Assembly: GCF_964355755.1 (NCBI RefSeq)
Contig: NC_092679.1
Coordinates: 17,963,432 to 18,027,431, forward strand
Direction: 5' to 3'
DNA length: 64,000 bases
DNA from: Antedon mediterranea
Lineage: Eukaryota > Animalia > Echinodermata
Part shown: positions 2,891 through 32,214 of the stretch, piece by piece
How positions within the stretch are numbered: position 1 is the first letter of the stretch
Layout: every line of letters begins with the position of its first letter
Translations under genes and position numbers: made by a program
The notes under the pieces: model-generated
Database searches by the model: none
The model's input: only the letters and a program-made list of their open reading frames with translations
What the model was told of the DNA's origin: nothing

Positions 2891-5800
2891 CTTGAGCATG
2901 TTAACGAGATCCATATTTGGCTCTACCGGTGGTTTTATATGCGTTAAACGCATCAGCTCCTCAAACGTAACCGTCAGTTGGGCCATCTTGCGGAAGTTAA
3001 TTTGCGATTTCTCCGTTTTGTCTGGTAGAGCTGTGTGTAATAGTACTAAATCTTTTAAATGTACCCCTGGTAAAAATTAAAAAGTTTTTATCATGAAAAA
3101 TGATTTTGTTTTGGACAATCTCTTATTATCATCATCTGGTAAAGAGCATTACAGGATATATAAATGTCAATCAAAATTTGATCTTAATCATGCCATGAAA
3201 ATATTTTTAATGATTTATAAAAATTTAAAAATTAAAGTAACTCACCTCTGTAGTAATAGTTACCACATATGAAGATTTGGGGAAAAAAGAAAAAAAATTA
3301 CAATTAAAATATGAAAAAAAATTACCATTGACAAACAATGCCATGGTCTATGCATTGCTATTTATCACATACTGACATTGCCAAATTGTCACCTCACATT
3401 GTGTCACTGACACACATTGCACACTATTATATAAAACGATGTTAAATATTAAAATGAAAATCAGGTTCTTTCCTTCTTTCCATTCATGCCTATGCGCACA
3501 TGTTGTTAGTATTACTGTATAGTTTATTTATCAATAACGTATACACAACACGTTGTAGTTCCATAATACATTGTTGGTATCAGGTTTATATTTGTTATTA
3601 ACGTTGACTTGGGGTGGGATGGAATTGTGATATAAGCCCATCTTCTTGAAATTGGAATTGTGTTGGAAGACCTGTTATCAGGTGATTCTGTTAACATTAA
3701 TACAGGTAATTAGCAAATGGCAAAAGAAGTAAGTTTATTTTTATTAACAAATGACAGGTAGCAAAAGGTGTATGTGGATAGTCTGTTTTTAGTGATATAG
3801 GATGCAAATTATAGGGTGGAATGGAATGCAATACAACATTGTACCATATTGAAACAGTTATAAGCCCCATGCTCTTAAAATTGGAATTGTGACAAGTATG
3901 TGTTTTACTCAATGGCCAAAATGATATGGAGTTAAGCTCTGTCTACACTATCAACCTTTATGTGACCAAAAAATGTGATGAGCCCATGACACGATGACAT
4001 CACATCACTTCCATATTAGGGCACATCACACTTTTTTTGTAAAACTAGTTTGATAGTGCAGACAGAGCTTTATCTTTTTGGTGAAGCACTTTTAAGATAA
4101 ATGATTTTAATTTTATCTACAATAAAACTTAATGATGACGTTCAACTAGAAACTCAAAACCAAGAAATCTAACCTCTACAGAATTGTTTATCCAGCCTTA
4201 ATCATTTGATTTACAAATTAAATTTGCAGGCAGAACTTTCTTATTCTATTGCAATAACATATGTAGAAAATACTGAGAAAAACTAATAAGTGTTAGACAT
4301 CACTTGTTAAGCTGTATATGTGTGGAGAAAGTCACCTGTATCAGACGACAGTCATCCACGATTAGCTGGGCCTCTCTACGACACACACCTGTGTCAAATA
4401 CCTGTATTTTGGGCATGCCAAAATACAAACTTGAACTTTTTTGGGGTAGGGGGAGATGTCCTTATGCAGACTGCCTTATGTCCTTTTTATAAGTCTATCT
4501 AAATTCACAGTCAAGTTATCACAATTCATTTTTTCCAAAAAACCATGTCATCAAAACCATTTTTCACTATACTTATATACTATATTTGGCAGGGAGTGAA
4601 GGGGAGGAGGTGGGTGGTGTGAGAGAAAGCAATCTCTATTTTTCTACAAACTACTTGGTATATTTGTATCACTGTGTGTCTGAATACTTACAGAATTGGA
4701 ATTTTGAAACCCTTGGCCTCGTTAAGTGCTTTTCTGTAATTGCTAAAATTAGAAGTTGACGATAACAATTCTGTCATCTCTGTAATAATCTAGACAAGAT
4801 AAAAATAGAGTAATCATCATATATAAGATCCAATGGAAAACAATACATTAGAACGTCTATTATGAGGGATACTTTCAGGATCCAACAAAGTGTAGGGGTG
4901 TCTCTTCAAAAGGTGAAGGGTGTCTCTTCCTGTCATTATTTTCATTGGAATGTATCCCTTTAATAGGGATGTCCCTAAATAGGGGTGTCCCCTGAGTAGG
5001 GATGTCCCTGAACAGGGTTGTCACATGAACAGGGTTGTCCCATGAATAGGGGTGTGATCCCTGAATAGGGGTGTCCCAAAGGAATGGTTCTACTATAAGT
5101 AAAAACTATCGAGTACTCAGTATCCTTTTGTTTTACTGAAATTTATTTCTTGGAAATATCTAACTAGTGTGCATAGGCCTAATAGATGCCAATGACAATC
5201 ATCTAGTGGAACATCTACTGGGGAAATATTGTAATTGTCAACACCCTATTATATGCAGAGGAGACACTAATGAGACACTTTGTAGGGAACCAAAGGTGCC
5301 CTCTTAATAGGGGTTCTAGTGTAAATTAACAAGGATTAAAGAGTAACCTGCATATGCATTAGTACAGAAGAAGGTCCACACCCCCATACCCCTGAAACTC
5401 ACCACCAACCATAAGAAAAACTATTTTATATAAAAAATTTCAATAATGGAGAAATATAAAACAAATTCTCAGATGACTAAGGTGAACCACCTTTATTGCC
5501 TTGCAAAGCTTCCCAATTTGTTTTAAATCTTATATTCAGTCCATCTAAATCCGCTGGAATGTCATAAATTTAACTGTTGCATTATATTTTTGAAAACAGG
5601 TATAACAACTTGATGAAATATGTATTCATATGAATATATAGTGGAAATAATAGTTCTAGATGGATAATGATAATTCTAAAAATATTTAACTTTTTCAAAA
5701 ATAAGTCCATGAATAATTTTGTAAATAATATTATTATTTTTAGGTTTGTGCAATTTATATTTTTGCTTTCTATTGAGTGTCCTTCGATAATTTTGTAAAC

Positions 5801-8800
5801 ATAAAAATATGTTTACAGTCTACAGAATGCTATTTTTACAGTTTCCACAAAAGAATATCTAAAAGCAGCTATTGTCGTAATTTGAACTATTTTTTATAAT
5901 TGCAAATATCACAACCACAGAATTTTGATTGATTTATTTGTAAGCAAACTTTTATTTTTATTCATTGTTTTTGTTTCTTGAATAACTTTATTAAAACTAT
6001 AAATTCATCTCAAATTGTCATGATAGAGTTCGAAATATCTTGTAATTGATAAGCGAAAAATAAAACATAGAAAGACAACATATTATTATATAATTATTAT
6101 TATTAAAAATTATCAAATTAATGTATAGGAAGAACATATAAATTCATTTTATTCATATTATATTGTGTCTGTCCCTGGGTCATTTTGAAACAAGTCCTGA
6201 GAACTTCTAATCATGATTCAAACTAACGGCCTTGGGAAAAACACCAATCTGGTTATTCAAGTGTTGCATCCATTTTGAAATAAAGTTGTTATTATTATTA
6301 TTATATAAACCGATAGAATAATCTTATCCTAATGCATAACAAAATCATTATTATCAAATTTATTATTTTCTGTATATCATCTTCAAATGTGTATATCACA
6401 TATTGTGTTCTATTGGTTAAATAAATGTTATCAAATCAAATCAAATAAAAAAAAACAATAATGACCATTTCAATGCTCTACATACCTTCTGTTTTTCGGG
6501 TGAAATGTGAGAGTTTGTTTGACGTAACCTAGCCAACGAGCTATGACTTAATCCACCAACAACAGCCATTAATGTATTAAAATTGTTCAGTTCTTGTAAT
6601 CTCTGCAAAATTAATTTTTGTAATATTTAAATATAGGAGGACCTAGTTAAGATGGAAGGGCACTCTGTATACCACCTTCTCATTTTCACCCTCTTTTTTT
6701 TTCTTATCATACATTACTTTATACTTCTAATTTTTCGTTTATTTATTTTTAAATTCAGAAAAAACTAATTTCAGAACTCTGAATTGGCTGAAATAACGTC
6801 AAAATTAATTTACTGCAGTAATAGGAGTAACTACATTTTGCAATATTGTATGATTTTTAAATGTAGAAGTTATGAGAGAGTCATTGCAATAAACAGTGTA
6901 AAAGAGTAAAGAAAGATGTAGTTACTGCAGAAAACTGCAGTAGATTAATTTAGAAATGGTCCGTTAGTGCTTTCTAAATGACTGCATTATTTCCTACAAC
7001 ATTTATGAGATGTAAAGCTCTTGGCAGCCCAGTACCTCATGTCACACCCCCACTTTAATACTAAATGCGATGATAGTATTTGATTAATGTATCTGTCATT
7101 GTGTACTTCATTTTGTATTCAAATCTTCTTTAAGTACGCCAATTGATTCAATTTGATTTGCCTTATGATGTCATCATGATTAGGGCTCACATCACAAATA
7201 CATCAGTGTGGGTGGACGAGTGAACTACATACGTTTACTCAGCATCACTACTAATGTGCGGTAATAGATTCTTTAAGGCATCGAATACTAATCAATGAAC
7301 AATATAAGCAGAAGCAAGTAGTAATAGATAAATTGATATGAAATGAGAAATTGTAGACAATTAAAATACTATACACGGCAAATTTCAATCTTGACGGTAA
7401 AAACGTAAAATATATTCATTAAATTAAAATACCAATCATGTTTATTTATAATTTGCAATTTTGGAATTTGTATTTATTTCTTATAGTATAGTACAATAAT
7501 AGGCGGATCCAAGAAGATGGGGACATATTTGGCCTCTGCAGAGCTCCCACTTCTCCCCCACCCCCATCCCCTTCCTACACTCACTATGGACTGAGTGCAG
7601 AATCTGTTTGGGCTTAAGCCTATTCTCATTCCTGGTTATTTTTACATTGATGACCGAATAAATATTATTATTATTATTATAAATATTATTTCAATATCTC
7701 CATAATATGAAAATTATTATAATGTTATGTTCTACAGTTAAATATAGTGTACGGTTCTTATATATAATAAAAAGTATATTATTAATTATTTAAACACTTT
7801 CGAAATCATGTTCTAGATATATATTGCATATAACCTTGGCTCGCAGAATATTCAAATGGGCTCTACAGCAGGTTTTTCAAATTTGTCTTTATAAATGTGG
7901 GCGAACACTTCAAATATGGCACAGGAATAAAAGCATAATCAATTATTTAAGCATAAGGTAATTAATAGGACAAATATTTATTTATTTAGTATCTGCTTTA
8001 AATGCTTTTTACCAACGCATTCACTATGATTTTCATTGACTTTTGTGAAAATTGGGGAAAAAATATGCGCAATGTATTTTTTTTCCCACCTTTCGTAAAA
8101 CCTTGGATTTTTTTTTTCCTCTTTTGTGGTGTAATCTACCACATTTATTCATTTATTCATTCATCATAATTATTACAAATACATATTGACATATTACAAT
8201 CTTTTTTTTCCATTATTTTCTGATTTTTTTGATAATTTTATTAGCACGGTTTACTGGGAATGTTTTACGGTATATGGCCCTTGCCTTCCCCTTAAGATAT
8301 GTGTGATGTATGTATCCATTTCTTTTCATTAATCATTACATTAATGTAATAAAAGTCCTTGTATTATAGATTTATATTTGACTTAATTGGCAAAATGACA
8401 TCATTATGATATTCATAAATCATGGGTTTTCAAAGAATTCCGTCTGTGAATAGATTTAGTAAATAACGATTGACTTAATTGGCTGGTCTTGCGTCAATGT
8501 TACTAAATACTCTACGTCTTAATTAGGAATAATATAATTTCATTTATTTATTCCATTTTAAATTTGATATATGACATCATCAAACCCGTGGTGAATTCAC
8601 ATGTCATGAGAATCGTGTGTGAACAGGACTAAGCATTAATGATTAATTACAGTTCACACATAAGCATCGCTTGTCTGTAACCTTAGGGCATGGGGAGTTT
8701 CGGTCTGGAATTGTTGCCTGAGGTGCGAAAACTGTCAACATAGAAATGAAGCAATGGTGAATTTGTGTAAAAAAATGTATTTTCTAGAATACAGTAGAAC

Positions 8801-11800
8801 CTCTAGTCTATTAAGTGGACACCCTCAGGACCCACCAAAGTGTCCCCTCTGAATACGAGTTAATTTAACCAAATTTACCCTGGTTTTTTTCACAGGAAAG
8901 CGTCCCCTGATTAGGGACGTCCCAAATGAGGGGTCGTACTGTGTAAAGTTCTGTCTATACTATCAAACTAGTTTGACAAAAAAAAAGTATGATGCGCTCA
9001 AATATGGTAGTGATATGCTCATATTTGGTAGTGAGCATAGGTGTTTATATATCGGCACATCACATTTTTTGTCACATAGAGTTTGATAGTTTAGACAGAG
9101 CTTGAGATGAACAATCTCAATAATCGTTCTACATTCTAACTACAATTAACACTCAACATATAAAAAATTGATGACCTCGGCTGAGTCTATGGATTTAACT
9201 AATAATTAATAATAATTATGATAAACGGCATCTGTCTAGTTATTTACAGTTTGTAATCATGACCGGAAAACTTGCAATTGTGGATAGAATTTGCGAGATC
9301 CTACAAGGATCAGCGATCTCACGTCACATGACGTCACAACCACACCTTGGGTAAACGAACACTGTCATATTGCGTGATACAAGCATACCGTGGTCAGGAA
9401 ACAGTTAAAGGTCACGGATCTTGCTAGTTGTACTATCAGTAACAAATCCCTGAATAAATTGCCTTTTATCAGGTATGCAATACGCGGTTTCACGCTTCAG
9501 TGTACAGGTTTAGACTCGATTGCCAGGTGCTTTGCATTACCTGGGGATTTCAGTTAAAACACAGCCAACTACGTATATTACGTTGATAATAATAATAATA
9601 ATAATAATAATAATTGATGTGTTTGGTTAGAATTTAACCTTTTTCATATAACTAGTATGATATACATTTATAATAATTAGATTTAAACTGTTTGACTTTT
9701 GTGAATTTCAATCAGTTTCTGAATTAATAAAAAATAATTGATGACGAAAGTGGTTATCATTTGAAGTAATAGATAACAATATACCTACGTTCCTTATATT
9801 AGATAAATATATAAAATTGTTATTTTGTATATTGTATTAAGCTAGTTTGACAAAAAAAGTGTGGCCGCCAAAATATGGAATCATTGTGTCCATATATGGA
9901 CACATCACAACATAAAATTTGATAGTGTAGACAGAGTTTAAAAGAGGGTTCTAACAAAAACCAGACTGCTTTAAGAAAGGCTGATACCAAATCGATGGAT
10001 TGAAATGACACATTATTATAATGATACACAAAATCCTGATTTAAGAAAAATCTGATAGCACATCAGATTTGAATAAAAAATTACATTTTAAATAGATTAT
10101 TCTAAAATCATAATTCGTATTAATTAGTCCCATATGGTTGACTTATAAATATTCATGAGCGATTAGAAAAGAAGAAGTAAAATCTATTCAAGACTACTTC
10201 AAATTTTCAACTTTAATAGGGTCAACAAGAATTTCCACTACAATTGTAAATACATTTATTTTAGAGAGTATATAAGAAAAATGCAGATGGATTATTAATA
10301 ATAATAATATTTATTTGGTCACCAATGAAAAATAATCAGGATTGAATGTGTTTAAACATGGGAGTAAAGTCACAAATTATGTATGTTTTGTATGCAAATC
10401 CAAAGGCAAATTAATAAAAAAATGTCAATGCTGTGGGTATCAGTGGCTGGATCGCAATGGAGATACAAAAAAAAATCACATGATAAAGCAGACAGAAAAG
10501 TTAGCAGAGCTTTCGGGCAACACTGGTCCTTCATCAGTGTTTTGTATACATATACATTTTCTAAATACAGATTTAAAGTAGTGTGAGGAGTAACAGTAAG
10601 CGAGAAAACCGTTTAGCTTGTCCCACATTGAATCTGTATCTATCATGAGCAAGTTTTCCACTCAAACATCGTTTTCTATGTACTATATATTTAAATTACA
10701 AATGTTGCTATTGTATGTATAGTAAATTAGATGTATAAATCAATAAATGTTATCATGAAAATATATCTAATCTTATACAAATCTTTAATTACAAAAAAAC
10801 ATGTATGAAAAATTGATCACCTTAAGGATATGAACCTGTGACTTTTATTAATAGGGCAAGTGACTAATCTCTTTAACCTTTTTATGATTAAACAGGTCAG
10901 ATATTTTATCGTGTAGTGTATATATGACATTTAACATGAAACATAAGCAGATTTATTACATGATGAACACATGATAAACATTCACCTACTGTACATGATT
11001 TGAACATGTGACCTCTTACTTTTAGGACAGGTGACTAATCTCATAGACCATCATTATGCAGGATATACAGTCTAGATACACTTTATCAGGCATATATTTT
11101 TGTATACATATCGAAAAGCGAGCAACTCTCCAATTACGGGATAGATAAACTTTTTTTATAATTATTGTGATTTAATCCTCTAGTCTTATTAGAGGCTTAG
11201 GAAGTAGTTAAAAGTTTTCACTAGGTTAGAATTGAACTCTGGACATTGAGATTGAAGACAAACATGTTAACCACCAAGCTACAGCTCCACTGTACAACTC
11301 CTATTGACGACCTAACAACATTTTTTATTCACCCTACATGAATCGAACCTCTGACCTTCTGCTTTACAGGACAAGTGACTAATCTAATAGACATCTTTAT
11401 GATTAAGCAGGTTAAGAAGACCAGATACATTTCATTTAAGAAAATGAGGCAATTGACAACATAACAACATTTTGATGACTGATAAATTTCACACTACATA
11501 TGGTTCGGACTGCTGACCTTTTGCTTACAGGACAAGTGACTAACCGCTAGACCACTTTTGGATTGAGCAGTTTATGCATTATATTTTGCAATACTGTATA
11601 TAATACTATTAGGAAAACATAAGTACTGTATTGCGATATTTATTTAATTACCTATAAATGATAAAAGATGGTATATTGAATTTAAATCCTTTATATTAAC
11701 AATAAACAAAAACAAACAAATTTCTTTTACAATTTAAAATGATTTCAAAACTGTATAAAAATTCATCTAAAGTATTTTCAAACAAACAAGCATTTATATT

Positions 11801-14800
11801 TGTTTATTGAAAATATCAGCTTTAAAATGCCTATTCAATTAAGCCTGTTCTAAATCATACAAAACGCTGACGTCACTGACACAGGCCGATATGTTATAAT
11901 GACGTTGATTTCCAACAAAGTGTTGCAACAAATAATATTGTAGATATTCAAAAAAGAAAATACATGAAAAAAACGAAAATGCAGTGATAAGATTGAATAC
12001 AGACGTATTACTATATAATATAGACAATGCCTATCAACAAAAACAGATATGTTTTGTAACCATGTTAAAGGGCCAACTGAAACATGTTTTACGCTCTATA
12101 TATATTTGTATGCTGTTTGATGTTGTTGAATTAAATTGAATTGTCTTTCTCTAGATAAAAAAACGGCAATAAAACCTACTTACAATATGATGAATGAATA
12201 AAATTTTTAAAAAATTTATTTCATCAAATGCCATACAAATAATACAGAGCATAAAAAAGGACCAACCTAGAAGTAAGCTTATCTCAGTTGGCCCTTTAAT
12301 AATAATAATTAATTGAATTTAATAAATTACCATAAGACCGAGTAGGCCAAATGATTACAAATTTGTCAAAAATTAGGGTATTGGATTATATACTCAGATC
12401 ACATTAACATTGGATTTACCAAATCCTTGTGTCTAAATTTAGCCTAAATTTGTGGGTGGGACTATAATCAACCATGGGATTATACTCGGTCACATACAGT
12501 ATATTAAAAATAAACTTTATAAATATAGAAACTAGAGGTATACTTACAACTGCTACATTGACAAATTTCTCCATGACCTCTGCCCTTTGCTTTGGCGTGT
12601 GTCGACTTAGTACCATACATTGAATCCACATGGATAATCCATTGAATAGGCCAACCGAACGTTCCAACTTTACGTTATCCTTCAGCTGACCGCTCAGGGC
12701 ATAGCTTTTAAAATCGCCAAACTAAAACAATAAAGACAAGGCGGATTAACATTAATATGAATATAGCACATAGGTGAAAAAAAAGGTTGAAATAGTGGGA
12801 AGAAGGTATAGAAAATAGACTCACATATGAGATGTTCCTATTCCCAAATAATTGACAAATAAAAAGCTTTTCAGTATTTGAGTATTTTTCAGTAAAGTCA
12901 CAATGGAAAATAGGAAATCCAAATTTCTCATTTACAACAAATTATATTTGTTTTTAATTAATAGCATGTTTAATCAACAAATTTTAATTTCAATATTTGT
13001 AATTTGTATAGTGCAATTACACAGTGACAATACATTTCATTGTAGCTTTGGTGAAATGGAGAACAGAAAAAAAAACATGTTATTATATGTTACTTGTATA
13101 GTTTTGAGTTTCTCCATGCCTAGAATATATATATATATATGTATACATATGTCGTATATATAAATCCAAAGGCAAATTACTGAAAAAAATGACAATGCTG
13201 TGGGTATCAGTGGCTGGATCTCAATGGAGATACAAAAATAAAAAGCAAAAAGCTAAATCAAAACGATAAAGTAAACATATATATAATATACATAAATGAG
13301 AAAATCTATGCTTGGAAAATGTATATATATATCCGTATAAATATGTCGTATATATAATATATATATAAATGAGAATAATCTATGCTTGGAAAATGTATAT
13401 ATACAAATGTCGTATATATAAAAATATACACAAATGAGAAAATAGCTCAGAACCAAAACAAAGGGAATACTTTATTTTACGTAGTTTTGTGCAACTGTAT
13501 CTTTAAAAAAGGTTTAAAGGTCAACGATTCAGATTAACCAATCAACATTCTTGAGTACATACTCAATGTTTTATATTATCCAATCAAAATACATAATGGT
13601 TCTCATCCAAGTCATTATGTTATTGATAGCATCTATATTTGGCAACTATCTATCTTGAATATATTTTTAGATTTAATTGGTAACATCTGACCTAAAATAT
13701 ATAATAATAGATTAAGTTTGCGAGTAGTAAGTCCCTGCAGCTCTAATTCCTCTTTTATTTTTAATTCAAATAAAAAAAGAAATTTATTTTTACCATTAAA
13801 AACAATAAAGCAAAATGAATAGGTAGTTTAGAATCTAAGCTTGACTCAACTACCAACAAGTGATAGCACATACTCTATATAAGTTTTTATGGCGAGCTAA
13901 TTACGCGGAGTGTGGAGCTACTACCTCAGAGTAGGATTATATGAGTGAGGGCTATTTCTCAGGGAGGACTTATATATGTGTGAGCTATTCCTAAGGGTGG
14001 ACTTATACATGAGTGTGGGCTACTCCTCAGGGTGGACTTAACACGAGTGTGGGCTATTCCTCAAGGTAAACTTATACATGAGTATGGGCTATTGCTCAGG
14101 GTGGACTTATACATGAGTGTGCAGTGATGTACAGCCACAAGAAATAAAGTGGTTCGGTTTTCGCAAGAAAAGGGAAACACCTCTGTTAAGCCACTGGGTT
14201 GTCAAATGCATCTGTGAAAAAGTGGTCACTGAAACCTTCCCAACCATACTGGTGGCTACAGCCCTGGTGTGGGCTATTCCTCAGGGTGGACTTATACATG
14301 AGTGTGGGCTATTCCTCAGGGTAGACTTATACATGACTGTGGGCTATTCCTCAGGGTGGACTTATACATGAGTGTGGGCTAGTCCTCAGGGTGGACTTAT
14401 ACATGAGTGTGGGCTATTCCTCAGGGTGGACTTATACATGAGTGTGGGCTATTCCTCAGGGTGGACTTATACATGAGTGTGGGCTATTCCTCAGGGTGGA
14501 CTTATACATGAGTGTGGGCTATTCCTCAGGGTGGACTTATACATGAGTGTGGGCTATTCCTCAGGGTAGACTTATACGCAAGTATGGGCTATTCCGCAAG
14601 GTGGACTTATACATGACTGTGGGCTATTCCTCAGGGTGGACTTATACATGACTGTGGGCTATTCCTCAGGGTGGACTTATACATGAGTGTGGGCTATTCC
14701 TCAGGGTGGACTTATACATGAGTGTGGGCTATTCCTCAGGGTGGACTTATACATGAGTGTGGGCTATTCCTCAGGGTGGACTTATACATGAGTGTAGGCT

Positions 14801-17800
14801 AATACCTCCGAGGATAAACCTATACATTAATAGAGTAGTACTAGTTTATGTTACATTAATGAATTCAATTATTTCCATTGAATAAATATTTATGTTTTTA
14901 TTTCCTATCCGTATAAAAAATCTGTGAAATTAATTACCACTTTTTTAATTCAATCAACTATATTGTAAAAATATATTTTAGATATTAAACTAAATAATTT
15001 TAAAATATCTTGAAAAATTTTCTTATAAAATTTTAATTATTACGATTGTTACAGATATTTTACTTATTTTGGAACCTGATCAATCCAGTACAAAATGGCT
15101 ATAATTGAATAAACATCAGAAGTGATAAAATTTATTATTAATTAACAAGCTATTTTCAAACATGTTTTTACAGCATTCGCCACAATCCAAGTATACGCTG
15201 ATCTGAAGCTGAACTTGGCAATCATGTTCTCGAAGGTGATCAGTCACGCGTGAAGTGTGATCGTTTAATTAAATGCACGCTGAAGAGAACCGACATGTAC
15301 TTAAGAGTCTGCAAACACTTTAAGTGACTGCCATTGTTAAGTCGAGGAATTACGATGCATTGTTATTTTCATCTTGGATTGCGAAACGGAAATAATAACA
15401 GTAATAATAATAATAATTTATAAATAGAGGAAAAATGAGCGCTATAAAAATAGAGAGAGATTATAATATTATACAAATAATGAATGTTTATTAGTCTAAA
15501 TGTAATAGTAGTTCAAACATATCCATATTAGATAGATCATGTATGATTCCACCAAACTTTCTAGGTTAAAATCACGATTGTGAGGCATTTGATAAATAGG
15601 CAAACTGCCTTAAAATATCATGTTTCGAGAAAATAATATCCATACTAGAGCAAAAATCTGTCAAGAAATACATTTTGAATTCTGTGGCTCAAATTATGTA
15701 TGTCTCCTATAGATAGTGGGTCACATACAATGTTTTAAAATCGAAGGTTCTTTGTACGAAATACATTCAATTATGAAATGCAGATGCATTTTATTCTTCA
15801 AATACTTTCAGAAAAACTGAATGTAATACATATACACATAAATCCATATCTGTATTGAACATGCATAACACGTACTAATCACTACTCTGTATGTACACTT
15901 ACATTTAAACGCCGAAATACTTTGTACTCAAGAAAAGTAAGATGATCGGCTAATTCTGTTGGCTCTAAATGATTGAAGACTAAAGATACTTTTCGGTTCC
16001 TTCCACGGAGAGGGTTCCGTACAGATACAACACGCATCCAGTCATATGATGGTCTAAAGAAGTCAGAAATTTTAATTTTACTGGATTAGAAAGTGAGATG
16101 GTACAAGCGATGAAATTAGATGTATCCACCTTTTAGCATCATTCTCACTTAATGGACTCAATGCAAGAACATAAAGGAAGTTGACCAATCACAACACGAT
16201 GGATCATCTGAACTGTCGCTTGTGATTGGTCAATTCACTTGCATTGTGCCTACATCATTGCATTGAGTCCAAGTGGGAAACGTACTTATAGAGTACAAGT
16301 TACCTATGTTGCACTGTGTATACCTTTACTTTTATTTTCTGTGGGACATATAACTTTCATGGGAAGATTTTATTTCTCACCTCACACAAACATTCGGAAT
16401 CACATTCATGTTAACAAACAAGAATGTTTACTTTAAATACTTACAAATTAGAAACATCGACAATAGTTATAAGTTGTGAATTTCCATCTGCGTGTAGGAG
16501 TGTTTGAAATTCTTGCAGTACACCATATAATTTCTTGTCTAAATCAAAATGAACAGGCCAGTTCATTATCCAATACCTGAAGAACAGAATATCATAGTGT
16601 TCTAGTACGTGTTATGTTTGCAGGTTTTAAGGCTATTAAAGTCATTATGTGAAAAAGATTGAAATCACTAATTTCATTTTATTAAAAAGTAGCTTTATTG
16701 TGACAAGGATTGAGAAAAGAGGCCAAAGGCTTCTGTCATCGATTAAGGATTTATAATAAATAATTATTCCAACTTTCACATAAAAATGAAATTTCTGTAG
16801 CTGGTGTGAAGAACAACTTGTTGCCTGATTTTTGCTCCCAAAATTTGGTACATAATTTGGTAATAATTATTGGTCGAAAAATGAAAAATAAAGTTAATGA
16901 CACAAATGTTTTTTCTTCAAGATAGAAACATAAACAGCTTTTATAGATAAAACTCCAATAATAATGGTTAGTTAAATGGTACCCAACTTGTGTGATCTAT
17001 TGAAAGTTTTTGCAAAAACAACACACCACTATAAACATGTTACAAATGTACCTTTATTTTTATATATAATATATATATACATATAAAACAGAGAATTATA
17101 ATAAAAGTGGGACGACCTCACACAAGACAAAAAAAAATTTTTCCACAAACAATTTTTTTTACGCACTATTTTAATCAGGTAGTGCGAATATAACAACCCA
17201 TTATTTTCCTCAAAATCTCATTTTAATATCTTATGTAGAACTTCAGTGTTGGTTTCTGGTTAATACTTTTTCTAGGGAAAATCCACACCCATTGCTTAAG
17301 AGATTACCATAAATTGATGTAGAAGATAGAAGTATAAGTACTGTATTTAAATATTATTTAATTTAATCTTATCAAGGATAACTTGATAAAATTAAGTAGA
17401 TATATATAGAATAGATATGAATATTCCATATCAATTAATGTTTTAATTAATAAATATGAGTATCTATAAAATATAATTAACTATGCTAATTACTTTTATT
17501 ATTGAATTTGAAAGAGAAGTTAATAAAAAATGTATATTTAATATATATCATCGATGAATCTAGAAAACAAAGTTTGGATGGTGAAGAGCAGGAGAACACC
17601 TTTGACCAAGACGCCAAGGGGAGAAAATTAACATTTTTATCCTATATATATAAGAGCATGTATCAGATTTAGTTGTATAACTTACAAAATGCAAAAGTTA
17701 CAAAAGATTGGCTAATAAATAATTAGTATAAAGCAGTTTCAGTTTTCCAGGGCACTATTGGAAAAACCTTGCACCAGTGAGGAGTCATAAATGCATGCTT

Positions 17801-20800
17801 TACAAAATTTCACATATTCACTTTCTCCTTTTTGCTTTTTTTTATTCTAAATTTGATAGTGCCCTTGCAAAATATTTTTTTCAGTACAGCCCTTTCAATA
17901 ACATTAATCATTGCATGATGTCATAATTTGATTATATTAATTAATTTACACAAAGTAGACAATAGCAATAGAATGAATGAAACGAATCTATTTATGGACT
18001 ATTTTGTTCTATGAATATATGCATGCATGTTTTACAATAGAAAAAACTGATCAGAAAATAATTTGTCATCAATTAGGTCGAGACTAGAGTCATTGAAATG
18101 AATACAGATTATCCCATTAGCAAACTACTTCCATTTGATTAACCTATTACGATCAATCTCCAACTTCTAATATTATCGACCATGCTGCAGTAGTTTAAAA
18201 AACGAGGTATGTGTATATTATGTATGTTATGTAATAAGGCAGATTGAATGTAATATTGATTTAGATAAAAACTAAATCTTAGCAAATAATTTTTATTATG
18301 ATATTTTATACAATAACATAATAATGAGTAAAATAGGTTTTTTTTGTTATGTCTGATGTAGTGCATTTCATTTAGTATGACAGGCCTATGTAAACTAAAC
18401 ATATAACAAGATGCAATGGAAATCCTGAACACAGAAAGCTTGTAAATTAAAATCTCACATACTAAACGGGACATTTTGTAAACTCCCAAAATCACTCGGC
18501 TTTTATAAACGTTTATTAGAAAATAACACAATGTATTTGTTACATTTTTCACCCCTAGCTATTCTTTCATTTAATAAATTATCTAGATCTGTATTTTCCA
18601 AAAATGATTGATTTAACCAAAAAAACAAAAATATTGGCGTTTATTTTTAAATAGTGCAATTTTTTTGTTACAATTTTTTCCTTGATTTAAAACAAAATAT
18701 TAGATTTTATAAACCCAGTGTTTACTAATAAATAACACCATTTTTGTTTTTACATTTTCCCCCTTGATTTAAACAAAAATATCGGCTTTTATAAACGTTT
18801 ATTAGTAAATAACACAATTTATTTGTTACATTTTTCACCCTATCGTTGAAATGATTACACGATAACAACCATTCAACATTCATTCTGAACCTTACCTTTT
18901 GTGTATCCCCTCTAATACAGCAGACATATATAGAGTTTGAACAATACCATGAAAGCCCCAGTGGTCTAATGGTTAGGAAATCTGCATATCAAGCAGAAGG
19001 TTCCAGGTTCGAATCCTGGTTTGGGGGACTTTTTCTAATTCTCACAGATTTCCTCATCTTTATCATTCGAAATTAATTAATTAAATTTCAGTATATCACC
19101 GGGCGGTTTAGAATTACTGTTCTATGCCTAATGTGTTATCTGATGAAGGGCTAGTGTTGCCCGAAAGCTCTGCTAACTTTTCTGGATGTTTTACTTATCG
19201 TTTTGATTTAGCCTTTTGCTTTTTTTTTGTATCTCCATTGAGATCCAGCCACTGATACCCACAACATTGTCATTTTTTCAGTAATTTGCCTTTGGATTTA
19301 TATATAAATTAATAATATATTATGTATAATTAAACTAATATGTATATATAAATTATAGTAGTTTATACCTGATAGCATGACATATCCTTCTTCTGTAGCT
19401 AAAAGCCTGACAATCTTCAAACGTTGCATTGTGCATACATGTTGACTTGTTACACTGACTTTTATTGCTGCATTGATACGTAAGAAAGATTAAAGAAAAG
19501 ACAAACAAAATACTGATAAGTTTGAAATATTAATATCATACCATAACGCTCTGTTTTAAAGGCTTTATTTCATCATAGGTTATAATCGCACATTTTTTAG
19601 AAATTTTTTAATTTGTTTTATAAAACACTAGTATTACACATTATGAACAAAACCAACATTCCTCTTTTTGTCAGCCTTAACCATTATTAGATTAAAAACA
19701 AAAATTGTACTTTTTTATCAGGCGGCTTAGAATTTGTTCTGTGTGTTGGTTTATATGTAAAAGTATTGTATCTCTTCGGAGATCTCACTGCATAAATAAA
19801 TATACTGAAAGATGCGGCCGGTTTAGAATTTCTTCTGTGCCTGTTGATTTGTGAAAAAAAAAACTGATATAATCAATTTCATTTAAGGTTTTGGGTGCCG
19901 CTATAAGTTACTGCATTATTTTATAATATTTCAAGATATTATTTTCCAAAATGAAAATTAAGACACGGATAGGAGACTTTCATTTAAAATACTCTATAGG
20001 CAGCATATGTTAGTTCTTTTGAGCACACCAACAACACTGTGCAACAGCAAATCTATAGTAATTTCAATTTAATTAAATTCTAACTAAAACTACTTTTATC
20101 AAATATCTCTGAAAGCTAGATTACATATATCACAACAACACGTGTACTAATGGTTTTTACTCGGGGGCTTAAATAGAAAATAATACATTTATATTTCATT
20201 TTCACAAACTTCTCAGAATATCTGATCGATATGTGGGTGGTGTGAATTTCAATTGTCGGTAATAGATCTAAAATTTAGATTAATAAAAGGTATTTTGAAT
20301 TTGATCTAAAACATTATAAATGTACATACTCGTACCCTAAACTGACTGTAGGATCTTGAGGACGAAACAAGTTTTTCATTAAATTTATCATTTTAAAAAT
20401 CAAACAACTATTTACATACTGTACCTAAAGAGAAAAAAAAGTGATAGTGAATGTCTAAATATGGTAATGATATGACATCATCATCATGTCCAAATATGGT
20501 AATGATATGACATCATCATCATGTCCAAATATGGTAATGATATGACATCATCATCATGTCCAAATATGGTAATGATATGACATCATCATCATGTCCATTA
20601 TATGGTAATGATATGACATTATCATCATGTCCAAATATGGTAATGATATGACATCATCATCATGTCCAAATATGGTACAGTAATGATATGACATCATCAT
20701 CATGTCCATTATATGGTAATGATATGACATCATCATCATGTCCATTATATGGGCAAATGTGATGTGACCATATATGGACACGATGCATGTTATATCACTA

Positions 20801-23800
20801 CCATAATTGGGCACATCACACTTTTTTGTCAAACTAGTTTGATAATGTCAACAGAGCTTTACAGATGAGTTATATACCATACCATCATTTTGAACACAAA
20901 GATGGGATGGCCTTATTATATATATTATATAGTACATCAGAATGGACTTAACCCAAGCACTGAAATCAAATGGCTCATTTTGCATAAAAATTATCAAAAT
21001 TAAATGAACCCACAACTTCCAGATCACTATAGTCTGGCGTTCCTACCTCTAGAGCACCGAGCTTGCGCTGATGGCTAGGGGTTAGATTCGAGCCCAAGTA
21101 AGTAGCGGGTACTGCCCAACAGTATTGACTCAATACCATGATGCAAAACTACTTTACAGTAGCAGGAACGGATTTAAGTGGGTGCTAAACAGGCTTTAGG
21201 CCCCCCCTAAAATTGTACTTTTTTAAATAAAATAATCACTATTTTTATTTTTCTGCATCCTGACGGATGGTTTTATCATTTATGAAATATTTAGCGCCCC
21301 ACCCCCCCTAATCTATAATGCTGGATCCGCCTCTGAGTAGTTACAAACAATTACAATTTCAAAAAGGATATAGATGAAGAAACTGAGTAGCAAGTTCTTC
21401 TGATAGCATAAACCACTCATGCATTAAAAAAAGTACACGTGGGAATGACGATTCCTCGATAACTTGCCCTGCGTCATCTGAAAAATACAACAAAATAAAA
21501 CAAATTAAGTGATAGGACTGTCCGACTTTTTTACAAATTGATAAATAAAATTGAAATCAGACTGGTTAAAATCAACATCACATCCTGTTGCCACCTTCTT
21601 TTGCTTTCAATTTTTTATTATACAGAAATATTTTCGAATAGAAATGTTGACATTCTTTGATTCTCTGATGACATTTTTGATTTGTACATTACATTTTCTT
21701 TTTTCAAACCTTCGTTTCATTGTTATTGATTGTTTCTATCTTTTGTGCTTTTCAAGGAAATAAATGTTTATTTTTATTTGATACATACAGTAGAAATAAA
21801 ACAAATTACCTAAACCCAAAGACTTGATATTATTAAGCATTATTTCAAGAATGTCGTTGAATATATAATTTGAAATTTGTCCTGATTTCTTGCTAAATTG
21901 GGGGTAATTTATTCACATAGTTATTAACAAGCTATTATTAATTATTCCCAGCAGAAACAGGTTATAAATTAATGTAGTGAGAGAATGAGGATAAACTTAT
22001 GTCAGATAAAACAAGATTAAACAATGTGCTACAATTTCAGACTTTAAAGCCAAACTCACCAAACATTTGATCTCAAAATATTAAATTGTTTATATTGTTT
22101 ATTCAATGCAGCTTATTCTTTATTGGTGTATTTCATTATAACTTTGTTTTGTTTTTAATTATTTTGTACTACTTAGTTTTGTTATTTTTGTATTGTATAA
22201 TAATGATGGAGTAAGAACAGTTTTCCTGTTTGGGCTCATGCCTTTTACTTGCTCCTACCAAATAAATATTATTAATATTATAGATAGATGAATATCGAGT
22301 ACGGTTTTTTTTTTCTACACTATCAAAAAAATTTGATGTGCCCATATATGGACATGATGATGTCATCACTACACCATATTTGGGCATATCACTTCTATAT
22401 TTGGGCACATCACATTTTTTGTTGTCAAACTAGTTTGATAGTGTAGACAGATGAAATTTTTAAATGAACATAAACACCTGAACAGCCATTGCTTATGTTG
22501 CGTACAGTATGTGTCAACCATACATAATCAATCTATGGTGATACTATATTGTATGAATGCGCACTCATGTTAACATCGCCAAACCTCTTTATCAATCTAA
22601 CCAGCAATCATCCATTAATTCATTTGACCTCACTAATCTAATCTAAGCATTTTTTCTGTAAACACTAACCATGCTACAGTAGTATTACAATGTTACATTT
22701 GACTTCACTAATCTAATCTAAGCATTTTTTCTGTAAACACTAACCATGCTACAGTAGTATTACAATGGGCCTGTTTCTGCTGCAACTGCTCAAAATACGG
22801 TATAAAAATACGGTATAAAATACGGTATTTTTTATACCGTATTTTTTAGTACCCCGTTTCTGCTAACAATACTTCTTGGGTGGTCGTGTTAAATTTCATC
22901 TTTTTTACCCAAATTGCCATTCATTTATTTGATCGATAACTAAAAGTCGCAATAAAGGAAGTTTTACGTCTCACTTTCAACAGCCGAGCCCTAGTGATAG
23001 AGATGTTGTGAGAGCACAGAAAACATCGTAATGGGGACAATTAATTCGTTCCCTCCCCGAGTTATTGTATTTTGCAATGCTGTACTGCTTTCGCAGGCTC
23101 TTCAGCTTTGAGTTTACTTGCTTTGGAGACAAGTCTATTCCATACTCCTGCTTTATTTTTTTAGAAATGTCTTTATAAATGTGGTTGTCCCTTTTATTAC
23201 CTTTTAGTTGGCCAGACATTTTAGCTTCCCCACACAAATTTATTTAGTAAAACTGTTACGTCTTCGCTCCACATTTTCGTCGAATATATATACACGTGTG
23301 TAAAACAGCTGACAGCGACAGAAAATAAAAACATGAATGTTGACCTTTTGTCATGTAAAAAAAAAATACTTTTTTATTGGCAGCAGAAACGGGTACAAAA
23401 AATACGGTATAAATTTGTAAATACCGTATTTTATCCACAAATTTTGTGGGGAAAATACGGTATACAAAATACGGTATATTTTTTATGAGCGCAGTTTCTG
23501 CTGCCAAAAATATACCGTATATATATGGTATTCAAAAAATACCGTATAATATACGGTATTTAGTTGGCAGCAGAAACAGGGCCAATGTTACATTTGACTT
23601 CACTAATCTAATCTAAGCATTTTTTCTGTAAACACTAACCGTGCTACAGTAGTATTACAATGTTACATACATGAAAAGAAATCAATACAATTATTAGGCT
23701 ATTTTAAGAACCCACATAAAATGTTGAGAAGCTCATGTAAATAATAAACAGTTTGTCATCGACAACGGGGGCAATGGGCTTATGATTATCCCACGAATTT

Positions 23801-25242
23801 TTAACGGGGTATTGCCCTTTCTTTGGGGAGAATACAATATACTTTTGTTAATTTATATGTGTTAAGTTTAACCATTTTTTTTATACTTATCAATATCACT
23901 AGTCAAAGGTTGTAACATGGACGTATACCTCCATAGTTGTAATAAGTCTTAATAGTGAAACATTTAATGATGCTCGTTTTTTTATGCTTGTTTTTTTGTT
24001 GAATGTATTGTTACTGTCTTTCATAAAGCGAAATCATTGTTTTTGTTCATTTATTGGGGGAAAAATGAATATTCAAAGTTTTTTTATTATATTTTATTCA
24101 TCTATATTTGTCATGTTTTTGGGGACAATAGTAATGACCGATTCAATCAATCAATATATAACTTTTGCTTATAACTTTTGCTTATAACCATGTTCATTTG
24201 TAGGCCGTTGCCAATATACAGTAATCTTCCTAAACACTATCTACTACTTTTAATACTTACAATATTATATGTTTTCATCTTTTCCATTGATTGTAAACCT
24301 CTAATTAAGCTTTTCAGTATTTTATTATTCAACTTCTATTTCCAATAATAGTCAATATAAACAATTAATTTTTATTATTATCATTACTGTAAATAATCAT
24401 TGTATATATTTTATAATTAATATTTATATAGGTTTTTTTTTTGTTTTTTTTTGTAAAAATCTACTGTAATATTATACCTTTATTATGGTTATAACAAGTA
24501 CAATTGATTGAATAAAGTTCACATAAAAATATAAATATAAAAAAATATCAAATTTACGAGGCATTCTATATACACTGCATAAATCGGAATACGATTTGAA
24601 AAACTTTGTAATATTTCATCCTGCATAGATATGTTGAATAAATACATAAATGAATAAATAATATTGATAGCTCATCAAAACAAATTAGAACATTTTATTC
24701 ATACTATAGTACTTATTATGAAGGTTAAGATATATCTAACCTATTGACAATAATTCATATAAGCCTTTAGGTTTAAAATAAATCGTTAATAATTATTGTA
24801 TGTAGAGTGAGGCCTATAAAGGTTGACCGTATATTTGTTAATTTCAACCAGCGTATATTAAGGTCTGAATGATGTCAAGGTTTTGGAGTCCTTACACTCA
24901 GTGGCTTAATGCAATGGGCAAAGGCCCCTGGTTTAGCACTCCTAAGAGGCCTCCAGCGCTAGGTAGTTGCATTGGGCTCCTCATGCTCTGGGCCCAAGCG
25001 TTTAGCCAGTGAGGGTGAATATATATTTGCCTAGTGGAAAGCAGGCTTTAATTCCCCTATCTCCGCCTTGTCAAAGTCAACAACTTACCGAAACATTCTA
25101 CACAGAGCTCAGCTAACTTATCAATGGCAGCAACTTTGACAGACAAACCAGGAAAGAGTACCTTATCCTCTTCCATAGACTCACTGTATGTAGATGATGT
25201 TGACAGCTTCTTCCGCCTCGTTATCATGCTATCCAGTGTCAT
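2891..25242 (-). CDS. RASGRP: RAS guanyl-releasing protein (RasGRP/CalDAG-GEF family), 5' part: REM + CDC25 domains; gene continues beyond the left edge of the window
   Basis: Hand-spliced exons (minus): 25242-25089, 21477-21372, 19479-19369, 16576-16445, 16053-15903, 12721-12548, 6602-6486, 4789-4692, 3247-3246, 3066-2891 = 1221 nt, one open frame. Translation includes [130 protein letters not shown], collinear with vertebrate RasGRP1-3. All introns are GT-AG except one AT-AC. The next expected exon (LSLD..TEDEIY) was not found in 1-2890. Confidence 0.95.
3246..3247 (-). CDS. RASGRP: 2-nt micro-exon (AG) of the RasGRP gene
   Basis: Minus strand reads pyrimidine tract TTTTTTTTCTTTTTTCCCC...TACTACAG|AG|GTGAGT. 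Including it joins ATT CT|AG|GG GTA CAT into I-L-G-V-H. Direct splicing 4692->3066 is frameshifted. Confidence 0.8.
3933..4072. mobile_element. ~140-160 bp MITE family with AGCTCTGTCTACACTATCAAAC TIRs (Tourist/Harbinger-like), copy 1
   Basis: TIRs AGCTCTGTCTACACTATCAA...TTGATAGTGCAGACAGAGCT flanked by TTA/TTA. Further copies at 8944-9103, 9842-9941, 20430-20861, 22314-22451, 33645-33682, 45644-45802, 54224-54361, 55321-55346. Confidence 0.85.
4844..5097. mobile_element. Tc1/mariner-pogo-like MITE (TA-CAGTAGAACC...GGTTCTACTG-TA family) with internal ~20-bp CCCTGAATAGGGGTGT repeats
   Basis: Degenerate TIRs. Related copies at 5257-5322, 8790-8943, 25523-25654, 63647-63715. Confidence 0.7.
8790..8943. 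mobile_element. CAGTAGAACC-family MITE copy
   Basis: TACAGTAGAACCTC...GAGGGGTCGTACTG, directly abutting another MITE. Confidence 0.7.
8944..9103. mobile_element. AGCTCTGTCTACAC-TIR MITE copy
   Basis: Same TIRs and internal CAAATATGGTAGTGATATG core. Confidence 0.85.
10396..10541 (-). mobile_element. 3' part of hammerhead-bearing SINE (same family as 18955-19305)
   Basis: Minus strand CTGATGA-AGGAC-CAGTGTT-GCCC-GAAA-GCTC-TGCTAAC...GATCCAGCCACTGATACCCACAGCATTG...TTTGCCTTTGGATTT. Confidence 0.85.
10815..11575 (-). repeat. Degenerate tandem array of tRNA-like units (~165 bp period), plus a different tRNA-SINE head at ~11222-11290
   Basis: Units at ~10817, 10982, 11328, 11489 share GGTCTA..GGTTAGTCACTTGTCCTGTAA..GAAGGTCA.AGGTTCGA (A-box and B-box remnants). 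Confidence 0.6.
13160..13275 (-). mobile_element. Tail fragment of the hammerhead-bearing SINE
   Basis: AAATCCAAAGGCAAATTACTGAAAAAAATGACAATGCTGTGGGTATCAGTGGCTGGATCTCAATGGAGATAC matches the reverse complement of 19195-19300. Confidence 0.85.
13907..14826. repeat. 35-bp minisatellite (~22 units) interrupted by a 145-bp insertion
   Basis: Unit GAGTGTGGGCTATTCCTCAGGGTGGACTTATACAT; 35-bp period visible (TCAGGGTGGA at 14281, 14421, 14701, 14771). Confidence 0.97.
14122..14266. mobile_element. Short hAT-like insertion with 5-bp TSD
   Basis: Ends CAGTGATGTA / TACAGCCCTG; GTGTG duplicated at 14117-14121 and 14267-14271. Confidence 0.75.
18955..19305 (+). mobile_element. tRNA-derived SINE with Penelope-type hammerhead ribozyme in its tail
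   Basis: Head 18955-19028 folds like a tRNA (TGGTCTAATGG A box, TCTGC/GCAGA stem, CCAGG-TTCGAAT-CCTGG T arm; imperfect acceptor and D stems). Hammerhead core at 19140-19170; ends in (TA)n; tail repeated elsewhere in the window. Confidence 0.85.
19134..19177 (+). ncRNA. Minimal type I hammerhead ribozyme motif (probably degenerate)
   Basis: CUGAUGA-A-GGGC-UAGUGUU-GCCC-GAAA-GCUC: conserved core, stem II, palindromic AGCU stem III. Stem I is poorly paired in this copy. Confidence 0.65.
19480..21371 (-). other. U12-type (minor spliceosome) AT-AC intron in RasGRP, 1892 nt
   Basis: 5' site CT|ATATCCTTTT at 21371; branch-like TTTTCTTTAAT at 19499-19489; 3' site TTTCTTAC| at 19480. Splicing gives in-frame H-L-Y-Q. 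Confidence 0.9.
20451..20752. repeat. 35-bp minisatellite (~8.5 units) inside a MITE copy (20430-20861)
   Basis: Unit ATGTCCAAATATGGTAATGATATGACATCATCATC at 20451, 20486, 20521, 20556 etc. Confidence 0.95.
22314..22451. mobile_element. AGCTCTGTCTACAC-TIR MITE copy
   Basis: TCTACACTATCAAA...TTTGATAGTGTAGACAG with the family core. Confidence 0.8.
22621..23665. repeat. Three 75-bp tandem units, the second split by a Harbinger insertion
   Basis: CATTTGACTTCACTAATCTAATCTAAGCATTTTTTCTGTAAACACTAACCATGCTACAGTAGTATTACAATGTTA starting at 22621, 22696, 23591. Confidence 0.92.
22767..23583 (-). mobile_element. Non-autonomous PIF/Harbinger transposon carrying a Myb/SANT (trihelix) ORF remnant
   Basis: TIRs GGGCCTGTTTCTGCTGC / GCAGCAGAAACAGGGCC, AAT TSD confirmed by the uninterrupted tandem units, ATACGGTAT subterminal repeats. 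ORF 22977-23237 ([33 protein letters not shown]...CPHYD) is Myb_DNA-bind_4-like. Confidence 0.88.
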
Positions 25243-26647
25243 GCTCCCTGTTGAAGATTTAAACAATAAATAATTGATTGAGATATTTCAAATCAGAAAC
25301 TCTCACAATTTCTATTTTTTCCAAAAGTCACTAATTTGAACCATGGAGGAATTATGTTTGAACATGGATACAAATTAGGACAACAAATGTAATATATCTA
25401 AAAAATCATGGAATTAATCCTTTAAAATCCTTCCTACCCTCCACCTCCTATCCCCACCCTCCGCGCACCCTCTCTACAATCGCTTGATCATCTGAACCAA
25501 CCTATATTAGGTAATTATGGAATGCAGTAGAACGCTCCACCAAAGAAACACCCCTGTATCAAGTGAGAACAGGGGATCAATATGTGTTTTATAGGCCTAC
25601 AGTCGATACCCTAAAGGATCCCACAGGTGTCCATTTAAACAGAGATCTACTGTATTTAATAATACAACAAAAATATTGTGTGTATAATTATTATTATATT
25701 ATTTTAAATTGAAATTGTTTATGGCATGCTGATCTATGTTTTTATATATTTATATCTGTATTTTATTGTTAACCGTTTTTGATGTTGTATTTTTTTTTAT
25801 TTCAAACCTGCTTTAGTGGCGGTATTCTGTTGGTTTGGATTGAATAAAATAAAATAAAATAAAAATAAAATATTAATAGTACAATGTATTGTAAATAACA
25901 AACAAATATTTTAAATAGGTGAATAATGTCATATCATAGCTGTCTGGTTTTGTTTTTCAGTTTAAAGCTTTCGGTTTCAAGCCTGATTCATGTCAATTAC
26001 ATGGATAATAAGCTTTCAACTAATTACTATGTGAACCTAAAGTAGCAGTCTACACCATCAATATCAATCATATTATAAAACTAGTTTTTTAAAAGAGAGC
26101 AAGTCAAATATTGCTCATACTGAATGCATTTAAAAGAAGGTAGCCTGTACAGTACAGTATATGCTAGCTAAATATACAATTTTAACAGGTGCGAAATTTC
26201 GCAAATAATAATGCAGAAGATAGGACATAACATTACAGTAAGCTCAGCACTTCATTTCACCATTTTTAGGCCATGTGCCCCCCCCCCCCACCCATTTTAA
26301 AATCCTGGATCCACCACTGTTTAATACAAAAATGTAATGCATGATTAGTATAGTATCTATTAACAAAACGTGTAAAATGTTTTGTTGTACATAGTGGGGA
26401 AATCCCTGGGGAAATCCCAAATCTTAAGTATAACTATAAAGTAATCCCACCCTGTAATTTATGTTAAATTCAGACAATTCATTATAATGCACCACAGCCA
26501 ACTTTGGTACTATGCTTACCTATTAGGTTGTATAGTTTAAATAATTTGTTAAACTAATGCCATTTTCACACACCTGCAAGAAGTAACAAGTTGTAACCAG
26601 GTTTGCATAGTGTGAAGATAAAAACACTGACAAGATGCCCCAAGTTG

Positions 26648-27877
26648 CAGACGTTCCAACCCTCCCAATTTATCCGGGAGTCTCCCGAATTTTAACATCA
26701 CCTCCCGGTCTCCCGAATTTTTAATATATCTCCCGATTTCACACATTTCTATAAAATTCAGTAATATTGTATTAAATTATAATCTATCTTCCCACGAAAG
26801 TTAATATTACAAATTAATTTAATCCCACACGTCGTACGTACCACCCCGTATGATACAACGAACATGTAATGTATGTAAAGATTGTATAGCATAGTACAGC
26901 GTACTGTAACTTGTAAGGCGACGTCCTTTGTGTTTACCGACAGTACGCGATTCTTACCTTTAGCGATAAAGCTACAGTATCGCTTTATCAGTAGAGTAGG
27001 CGCACGTGTACTGAAACTTTTTCCTGGTTACAAGTTTGACCTAATTCCCATGCCCAGGGAAGGCATCATCGTCAGTGTAGTAGTAGTAGTAGTACTATGC
27101 GACGTCCTTTGTGTTTACTGACAGTACGCGATGAATCTACAGTATCAGTGGTAGGCGCGCGTGTACTGAAATTGCTAGTTACAAGTTCTTTGACCCAATT
27201 CCAATGCCCATGCATCGATCGTACCATCGTACAGTACTGTATGTATTCTCACTGCGCATGTACCGGAAAAGTACTTGTAGTACTGTATTTTGCGTACATA
27301 CTTTCGCGAATTGCAATCACTCATGAAATTTTCTGGTTTTACAGTATGTCGGAAAAACGTAGTAGCGTAGTTTTAGAGACTAAAGTTGTAACAAGAAAAA
27401 ATATAAAACTAGATTTTCTAATGAATGGAAAAATACGTTTCCGTTTGTTAGTGCGAGTAATCAACACGTTACCGAGAGTGAATACAAATTTTTTTGCACT
27501 ATTTTTAACGTGAATTGTCATGCTCACAGGGAGGAATCAACGATGTTGCTGTACACTCCAGTAAGTTGTTTGTTTTAATTTGTATTTTTGTTAATGAATT
27601 AATACAACTAAATACAGATTTGATTTGTACTGTGAATGGTTTTTTATTTAAGTGTATACAACGAATAAAGTTAGTAAATAAAGTTTGATTTATAATCACC
27701 AAACAAGTTCTTTTCTTTTTGTTTGTATTACTCTGATTTGCAAAGAGCTGTCTTTATATCGTGTTGGTAGTACAGTATACTTTTATTCTTGAACGTTGGT
27801 GGCGACAGACATCACAGTGTTAACATTGGTGGCGGTATATCCTCCCGATTTTTAATTCATTTAGGTTGGAACGTCTG
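26648..27877. mobile_element. hAT-like non-autonomous transposon, apparent 6-bp TSD
   Basis: TIR CAGACGTTCCAACC / GGTTGGAACGTCTG, CTCCCG subterminal repeats, AAGTTG on both flanks; internal duplication 26915-27060 / 27100-27215. Confidence 0.85.
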
Positions 27878-28071
27878 AAGTTGCTACTGCGCATTTGTAA
27901 TTGTTCTGGTATTAAATTGAATCATACATCAAATAGCGCCCAACTATACTTTCTCCCGAGATTTCTCAAGGTTCACATGTATCAAAATGTGTAATTTATA
28001 AGATCAAACTATGTTACAAATTGTAGTAATGTGTGCAGATGTGTAAAGGGTATTATCAATGTACAGTACAA

Positions 28072-28272
28072 CAGGGTATTGCTAAACACCCCGCAAACCC
28101 CCGCAAACCTCCAAAAAAACATAGCAAACCCAATCGAACCAACATTTTTTTACATGGATATACCCAGTGGGTTGTACACTACATGATTCAATCACTTTCA
28201 TGTTGGTTCGATGGGGTTTGCTATGTTTTTTTGGAGGTTTGCGGGGGTTTGCGGGGTGTTTAGCAATACATG
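28072..28272. mobile_element. 201-bp foldback MITE with ~70-bp arms and 5-bp TSD
   Basis: Arms 28076-28145 / 28200-28269 are near-perfect inverted repeats; TACAA on both flanks. Confidence 0.9.
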
Positions 28273-32180: not shown

Positions 32181-32214
32181 CTGGCTCTAGCAGAAAAACT
32201 GACTCGGAATTCAT
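32181..32214 (-). CDS. Candidate upstream coding exon of RasGRP (MNSESVFLLEP-G)
   Basis: ATG at 32214 and donor CAG|GTATGT at 32181/32180. Phase 1 matches the acceptor CAACAG|GG AGC ATG at 25247, in frame. No homology support. Confidence 0.4.

Follow-up and report, generated by a model that had tools for sequence, protein, structure and literature searches.

A probable obligatory two-nucleotide exon in the RasGRP gene of the feather star Antedon mediterranea

The window, a 64,000-nucleotide stretch of the genome of the feather star Antedon mediterranea (NC_092679.1), carries codons 1-420 of a RasGRP gene on its minus strand, from 32214 to 2891. The product is a RefSeq protein, XP_071963091.1 (P0001), whose source label is RasGRP3-like. 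Pfam finds in it the combination of REM, RasGEF (residues 214-389), EF-hand and C1 domains by which the RasGRP family is recognised, its best PDB match is human RasGRP1 (E 3e-167), and the motif IPILGVHLKDL is identical in that human protein; the gene is the crinoid RasGRP. Eight upstream coding exons are spread over 6486..32214 (32214-32181, 25247-25089, 21477-21372, 19479-19369, 16576-16445, 16053-15903, 12721-12548 and 6602-6486). They are followed by exon A (4692..4789, 98 nt, residues 329-361) and exon C (2891..3066, 176 nt, residues 362-420), the peptide of the latter having 100% identity to P0001. When the dinucleotide AG at 3247-3246 is counted as an exon, eleven exons reproduce 420 of the 420 residues. 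The same match requires intron 3 (19480..21371) to be of the U12 type, AT-AC, with ATATCCTTT as donor and an AC acceptor; U12 introns are reported in mouse Rasgrp3 and human RASGRP4 (PMC5224493, PMC1557818).

High-copy short repeats are present in the introns of the gene at 3932-4073, 8944-9103 and 13183-13277, the first of them with 52-nt inverted arms and MITE-like. Two 14-nt intronic words, at 3650-3663 and 3879-3892, are 93-100% alike and resemble the end of exon A (4694-4707), a resemblance that is probably chance or a small repeat. Elsewhere in the window, a 490-codon open frame on the plus strand (48784-50259) and a downstream piece (50585-50908) look by their motifs like a family 1 glycoside hydrolase, which we presume them to encode, and short minus-strand frames at 60508-60389 and 57637-57515 are what we take to be exons of a selenoprotein W-like gene.

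The junction of interest is that between exons A and C. Exon A closes at 4692 with ATT CT|GTAAGT and exon C starts at 3066 directly after CAG, just as a first-pass annotation of the sequence had placed them. That annotation also held that the two cannot be joined directly and that two additional bases, AG, give L-G-V-H with no insertion or deletion, and both statements are borne out. Direct joining shifts the frame and brings in a stop at codon 384, with 106 nt of exon C still to follow; with AG in place the frame is that of all 420 residues of P0001. The two bases complete Leu361-Gly362 within the RasGEF domain, as the third base of the first codon and the first base of the second. Taken as an exon at 3246..3247, a status that is inferred, the AG would separate an upstream intron of 1444 nt (3248..4691, GT-AG, phase 2) from a downstream intron of 179 nt (3067..3245, GT-AG, phase 1). 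Retention of either intron leads to a stop at codon 362 or 366.

Five sequencing runs cover this stretch, none of them on record as RNA, and the RNA evidence is a single contig from one run (X1). It is spliced, 2467 nt long with a depth of 12.9, and it aligns to 2888-3068 with 0 differences. Behind 3068 its loose end is identical at every position to window 4692-4721, where exon A ends, so the message carries exactly AG between the CT of exon A and the GG of exon C, which is the junction that had been predicted for the mature mRNA. This one contig thus shows spliced RNA with bases that lie between exons A and C. A further contig of the same run, over the site itself (3116-3366), is unspliced on both sides; its depth is 6.7 as against 3.2-5.4 for seven other intronic pieces, a measure by which parts of the gene cannot be ranked. 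Among the contigs, which drop rare forms, there were no splicing intermediates, lariats, or skipped or half-spliced forms.

Some other routes to an intact frame were considered and set aside. An intron with TA..CA ends, giving CTG GGG and hence also Leu-Gly, is excluded by the loose end of the spliced contig, and the same contig rules out, for this transcript, a longer frame-restoring exon between A and C. The frame could also be restored from a weak donor within exon A, at the cost of six residues, which both the contig and P0001 retain.

Were two bases simply missing from the assembly at the start of exon C, no micro-exon would be called for, and the first-pass annotation had asked for raw sequence at 3064-3067 for that reason. 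Contigs of three DNA runs (X2, X3, X4) span 2700-3333; they have no listed indel at 3064-3067, where no bases are missing, and match the window across 3064-3069. (At some point of 2700-3333, X3 has a single 1-letter gap that is not itemised; X2 and X4 have none.) The three runs are of one sample, possibly the assembly's own source, and this counts on the side of an error. However, the locus L001, from another species, has the same shifted acceptor, and an assembly error is extremely unlikely.

On the minus strand the site reads CAG at 3250-3248, AG at 3247-3246 and GTGAGT from 3245. It had been described as lying some 180 nt into the intron, which is right for the distance to exon C (179 nt) but not for that from exon A (1444 nt). 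The pyrimidine tract said to precede the AG is likewise there, though it does not run up to it: the tract, rich in T, extends from about −75 to about −25 relative to the putative exon and so ends approximately 25 nt before the AG. Predicted branch-point-like words are near −57 and −65. The acceptor region (3248..3345) is a 98-nt AG-free zone, the longest among the gene's 10 acceptors, and its pyrimidine share of 0.70 is joint-highest among them; the acceptor of exon C, with 0.50, has the lowest. Chance expectations for the splice words were taken from Markov models. A bare AG-AG-GT is unremarkable, with 0.2-1.4 expected per intron and 2 found in the intron between A and C. The full consensus YAG-AG-GTRAGT, on the other hand, is expected only 0.001-0.008 times per 1625 nt, and YAG-AG-GTRAG has a single occurrence in 128 kb (both strands). 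A filter keeps one of the 23 YAG-N(0-5)-GTRAG sites in the window, a result that is descriptive only, the cut-offs having been chosen after the values were seen. The AG at 3247-3246 thus has the canonical AG and GT flanks, and the strong, above-chance signals, by which an ultra-short (<3 nt) micro-exon may be recognised. No trace of duplication between the two acceptors (the 3248 and 3067 sides) was found, and the fold is unremarkable (z 1.06).

A 2-nt exon at 3247-3246 is very probably the source of the AG between exons A and C, and is the best explanation because its sites are canonical, its full consensus is rare by chance and its acceptor signals are the best in the gene. The sole other AG-AG-GT in the intron, at 4174..4175 (word 4179-4172, TAG-AG-GTTAGA), also has canonical dinucleotides and could in principle have supplied the two bases. 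But there the pyrimidine share is 0.50, the AG-free zone is 19 nt and the donor, GTTAGA, is without the RAG consensus; sites of such quality are expected 0.1-0.8 times by chance, and derivation of the bases from this weak site is most improbable.

A rival of a different kind dispenses with any micro-exon. One non-canonical GT..CC intron from 4691 to 3069 would leave the genomic AG at 3068-3067 attached to exon C, the site at 3247 being a coincidence. The mature RNA would be identical to that from a 2-nt exon, the spliced contig does align contiguously to 3068, and the ancestral exon boundary would stay. The ambiguity extends beyond the crinoid: exon C is preceded by AG, or by two bases compatible with AG, in all echinoderm-like sequences, and an intron with GT..(C/A)C ends therefore gives the same message there. 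Since no splicing intermediate of a 2-nt exon was seen, that exon is not proven against this reading. Calls of 1-2 nt exons are described as the chief false positives in the account of MicroExonator, and animal micro-exon pipelines drop or omit exons of <3 nt as unreliable (PMC7821500). Nevertheless, CC departs from AG at both bases. According to a Drosophila study, GT-CC and GT-AC account for 0 of FlyBase's 79 non-canonical introns among about 60,000, and the non-canonical introns other than AT-AC are all one base off GT-AG (PMC4528330). The CC would, moreover, have to outcompete a perfect CAG two bases away; the consensus site at 3247, with its expectation of 0.001-0.008, would be left unexplained; and L001 would require GT..AC in a U2 context. 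The single non-canonical intron is accordingly regarded as improbable, and the 2-nt exon is retained as the preferred reading.

Comparison with other animals suggests that the acceptor of exon C is itself displaced. The residue before the Gly is shown by 104 short proteins (<=200 residues). Sixty-seven of them, mostly vertebrate-like ORFs with no intron here, read through the motif; the other 37, short ORFs from genomic sequence, are interrupted just ahead of the Gly, with R in 27, S in 8, P in 1 and T in 1. R or S, found in 35 of these, is what would be expected from an acceptor AG placed immediately ahead of the third Leu-codon base, with S ambiguous. For P0201 (P-G) and P0202 (T-G) this older acceptor is impossible and the shifted acceptor fits. 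Metagenome sequence provided 48 loci, with the start of exon C shown in 44 and not in 4. At the older acceptor, two bases upstream, there is an AG in 43 of the 44 informative loci; in 10 of the 43 the exon itself begins with AG, and the 43 outgroup loci are redundant, comprising 20 distinct peptides. Wherever both exons are visible (18 of 18 loci), there is a YT|GT donor at the same position and splicing is direct and in frame; the donor position of the crinoid's 1444-nt intron is thus one that other invertebrates have too. The exception among the 44 is L001, with AG only at the shifted position (ACAG|GT GTG). The shifted acceptor hence fits 3 of 3 echinoderm-like genomic sequences (L001, P0201, P0202) and the older one is absent from them. 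In a tree of 47 rows and 58 columns, whose bootstrap had not settled and from which L043 was omitted as too short, these three fall, together with the sea star Acanthaster, within the echinoderm clade (95/82 and 93/85). On this sequence comparison, the shifted acceptor is likely common to at least the crinoids and the sea-star branch of the echinoderms, and the position of the downstream intron (3067..3245) is likely echinoderm-specific.

Full-length echinoderm proteins have no indel at the motif. The GenBank models P0004 and P0058 of the sea cucumber Apostichopus begin five residues before the motif's Val, likely an annotation failure at this same junction. In L001 there is no AG-NG-GT site in the 526 nt upstream of the exon, which is the extent of the contig, and its intron has no clear homology to that of the crinoid. 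L001 does have, at 262-299, a pyrimidine tract ending TTAG|GTATTT, an acceptor and a donor with nothing between them, some 230 nt ahead of the shifted acceptor (the crinoid 2-nt exon is at 179 nt); this may be chance, a remnant of zero length or an error in the contig. In L043 (6035-6295), a CT|GTAAG donor is accompanied by an exon starting AG GG, likely the state before the gain, and there is an apparent further intron inside exon C. Echinoderm exon-A ends were sought among 50% representatives; of 22 matches 12 were read, and none of the 12 was an echinoderm genomic ORF. The prokaryote genomes and viral contigs scanned contained no RasGRP locus; two short bacterial matches, L049 and L050, were left out.

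Exons below 3 nt have precedents, those of 1 nt being known already in plants and fungi; the feather-star case would add an animal member. For Arabidopsis APC11, substitution experiments established a 1-nt exon (PMC4674806), and a conserved 1-nt exon is reported for plant VPS55 (PMC8831610). These share with the present case a frame-essential exon of <3 nt, missed by predictors, between canonical AG and GT with a GTRAGT donor; they are conserved across a lineage, as the feather-star exon may be. The feather-star exon differs from them in its 2 nt, its location in an animal nuclear gene and, relative to APC11 with its proof by substitution, its inferred status. For Fusarium CYP621A, a 1-nt exon has been inferred (PMC12940212), as here from a phase mismatch in a conserved motif at a glycine codon with spliced reads as the only confirmation. 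The Fusarium site has been aligned in many genomes, whereas the present evidence is one genome and a shifted acceptor in three sequences; unlike in Fusarium, outgroups here display the older single intron. The same source attributes exons of 2-5 bp in Arabidopsis, Drosophila and humans to an older study (PMC12940212).

The nearest animal system is human MPC1, with a constitutive 4-nt micro-exon and branch points at −64 and −68. HeLa minigenes with its exon cut to 2, 1 or 0 nt are reported to be spliced in two steps with two lariats, and the group concerned reports that it could find no naturally occurring exon of 1 nt in the human genome (PMC9929638). Both MPC1 and the feather-star case are animal micro-exons whose length is not a multiple of 3, with distant branch points (in the crinoid, predicted branch-like words), but the natural length in MPC1 is 4 nt and its 2-nt form is engineered. 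Likeness to the neural class is more limited. Neural micro-exons regulated by SRRM3/4 are of 3-27 nt with a pyrimidine tract set back from the AG. Small size and the set-back tract are shared; the feather-star exon is distinguished by being 2 nt long, frame-obligatory and not a multiple of 3. It falls outside the frame-neutral, multiple-of-3 class, its skipping giving the stop at codon 384, and it is without the TGC word, a motif of the SRRM3/4 type, which is absent from the 25 nt before the AG acceptor. In the main text of papers that were mostly open access, we found no account of a RasGRP micro-exon or of an echinoderm 2-nt exon.

How would such an exon be spliced? With two bases between them, acceptor and donor cannot be used at the same time; one of the two flanking GT-AG introns would hence have to go first, and a constitutive exon at 3247-3246 is predicted to be included by their successive removal. 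If the 179-nt intron went first, an exon of 178 nt, as in other invertebrates, would be rebuilt; if the 1444-nt intron did, exon A plus AG would be left with a consensus AG|GTGAGT donor. Either order would leave an ordinary exon, and neither is ranked above the other. Inclusion every time would be favoured by a strong acceptor ahead of the AG, a weak one at exon C and a short downstream intron (179 nt).

The first-pass annotation had gone on to propose an on/off splicing switch, with skipping or recursive splicing at a zero-length GAG|GT site destroying the exchange factor. That skipping would be destructive is supported by translation: with the stop at codon 384 the protein would lose the last part of its RasGEF domain together with the EF-hands and C1. 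Such damage shows the exon to be required, not to be regulated. A switch, in which a real 2-nt exon is left out in certain tissues or stages, whether directly or via GAG|GT, and the message sent to decay, would come on top of the 2-nt exon and would not compete with it. Since the stop leaves 106 nt of exon C behind it, the 50-55 nt rule predicts decay, which would hide the skipped form; plant VPS55 is reported to occur with and without its 1-nt exon (PMC8831610). Yet the one RNA contig has the included form only (weak evidence, contigs dropping rare forms), the strong acceptor of the exon and the weak one downstream favour inclusion, and the closest precedents, APC11 and MPC1, are described as constitutive (PMC4674806, PMC9929638). 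The idea of a switch is left unsupported, and regulation of this kind is unlikely. The zero-length site fares no better: AG remains in the spliced contig and GAG is a second AG, two bases behind a CAG, though a minor zero-length route may exist alongside AG inclusion. By its anatomy and these closest precedents, the exon is most likely constitutive.

From the older acceptor in 43 of 44 loci and the shifted one in all three echinoderm-like sequences, the exon likely arose early in echinoderms. The comparison of loci, together with the tree, gives the pattern of a near intron pair, with the older position in outgroups and the newer in the echinoderm clade. In such pairs, old and new positions are a few bases apart in orthologs and the new one marks a clade; the method assumes that coexistence in one gene is very unlikely (PMC2891723). 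Here both introns are apparently present in one gene, 2 nt apart, a coexistence that depends on the micro-exon being real. The origin that we favour, with moderate confidence, is the gain of a new intron within the old exon, at AG|G and two bases from its start, early in echinoderms, with both introns kept. The alternative, a two-base slip of the acceptor after which a cryptic exon rescued the frame, as proposed for Fusarium (PMC12940212), is possible but on the doubtful side. That a natural, obligatory 2-nt exon was made by near-intron gain and has been kept across echinoderm classes since their common ancestor is, as a whole, given slightly better than even chances.

The RasGRP protein itself is unaltered by the 2-nt exon. 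A frame-essential exon of this length would lie in a single conserved signalling gene, backed by spliced RNA and with a likely phylum-wide distribution, and sea urchin and sea star embryos can be injected, so that a test is feasible there. If true, it would be a clean natural test of the animal spliceosome with donor and acceptor two bases apart, and a counter-example to the mutual exclusion of near intron pairs. One route to apparent intron sliding by 2 nt would be shown, and an exon made by near-intron gain would be a frozen intermediate of that apparent sliding.
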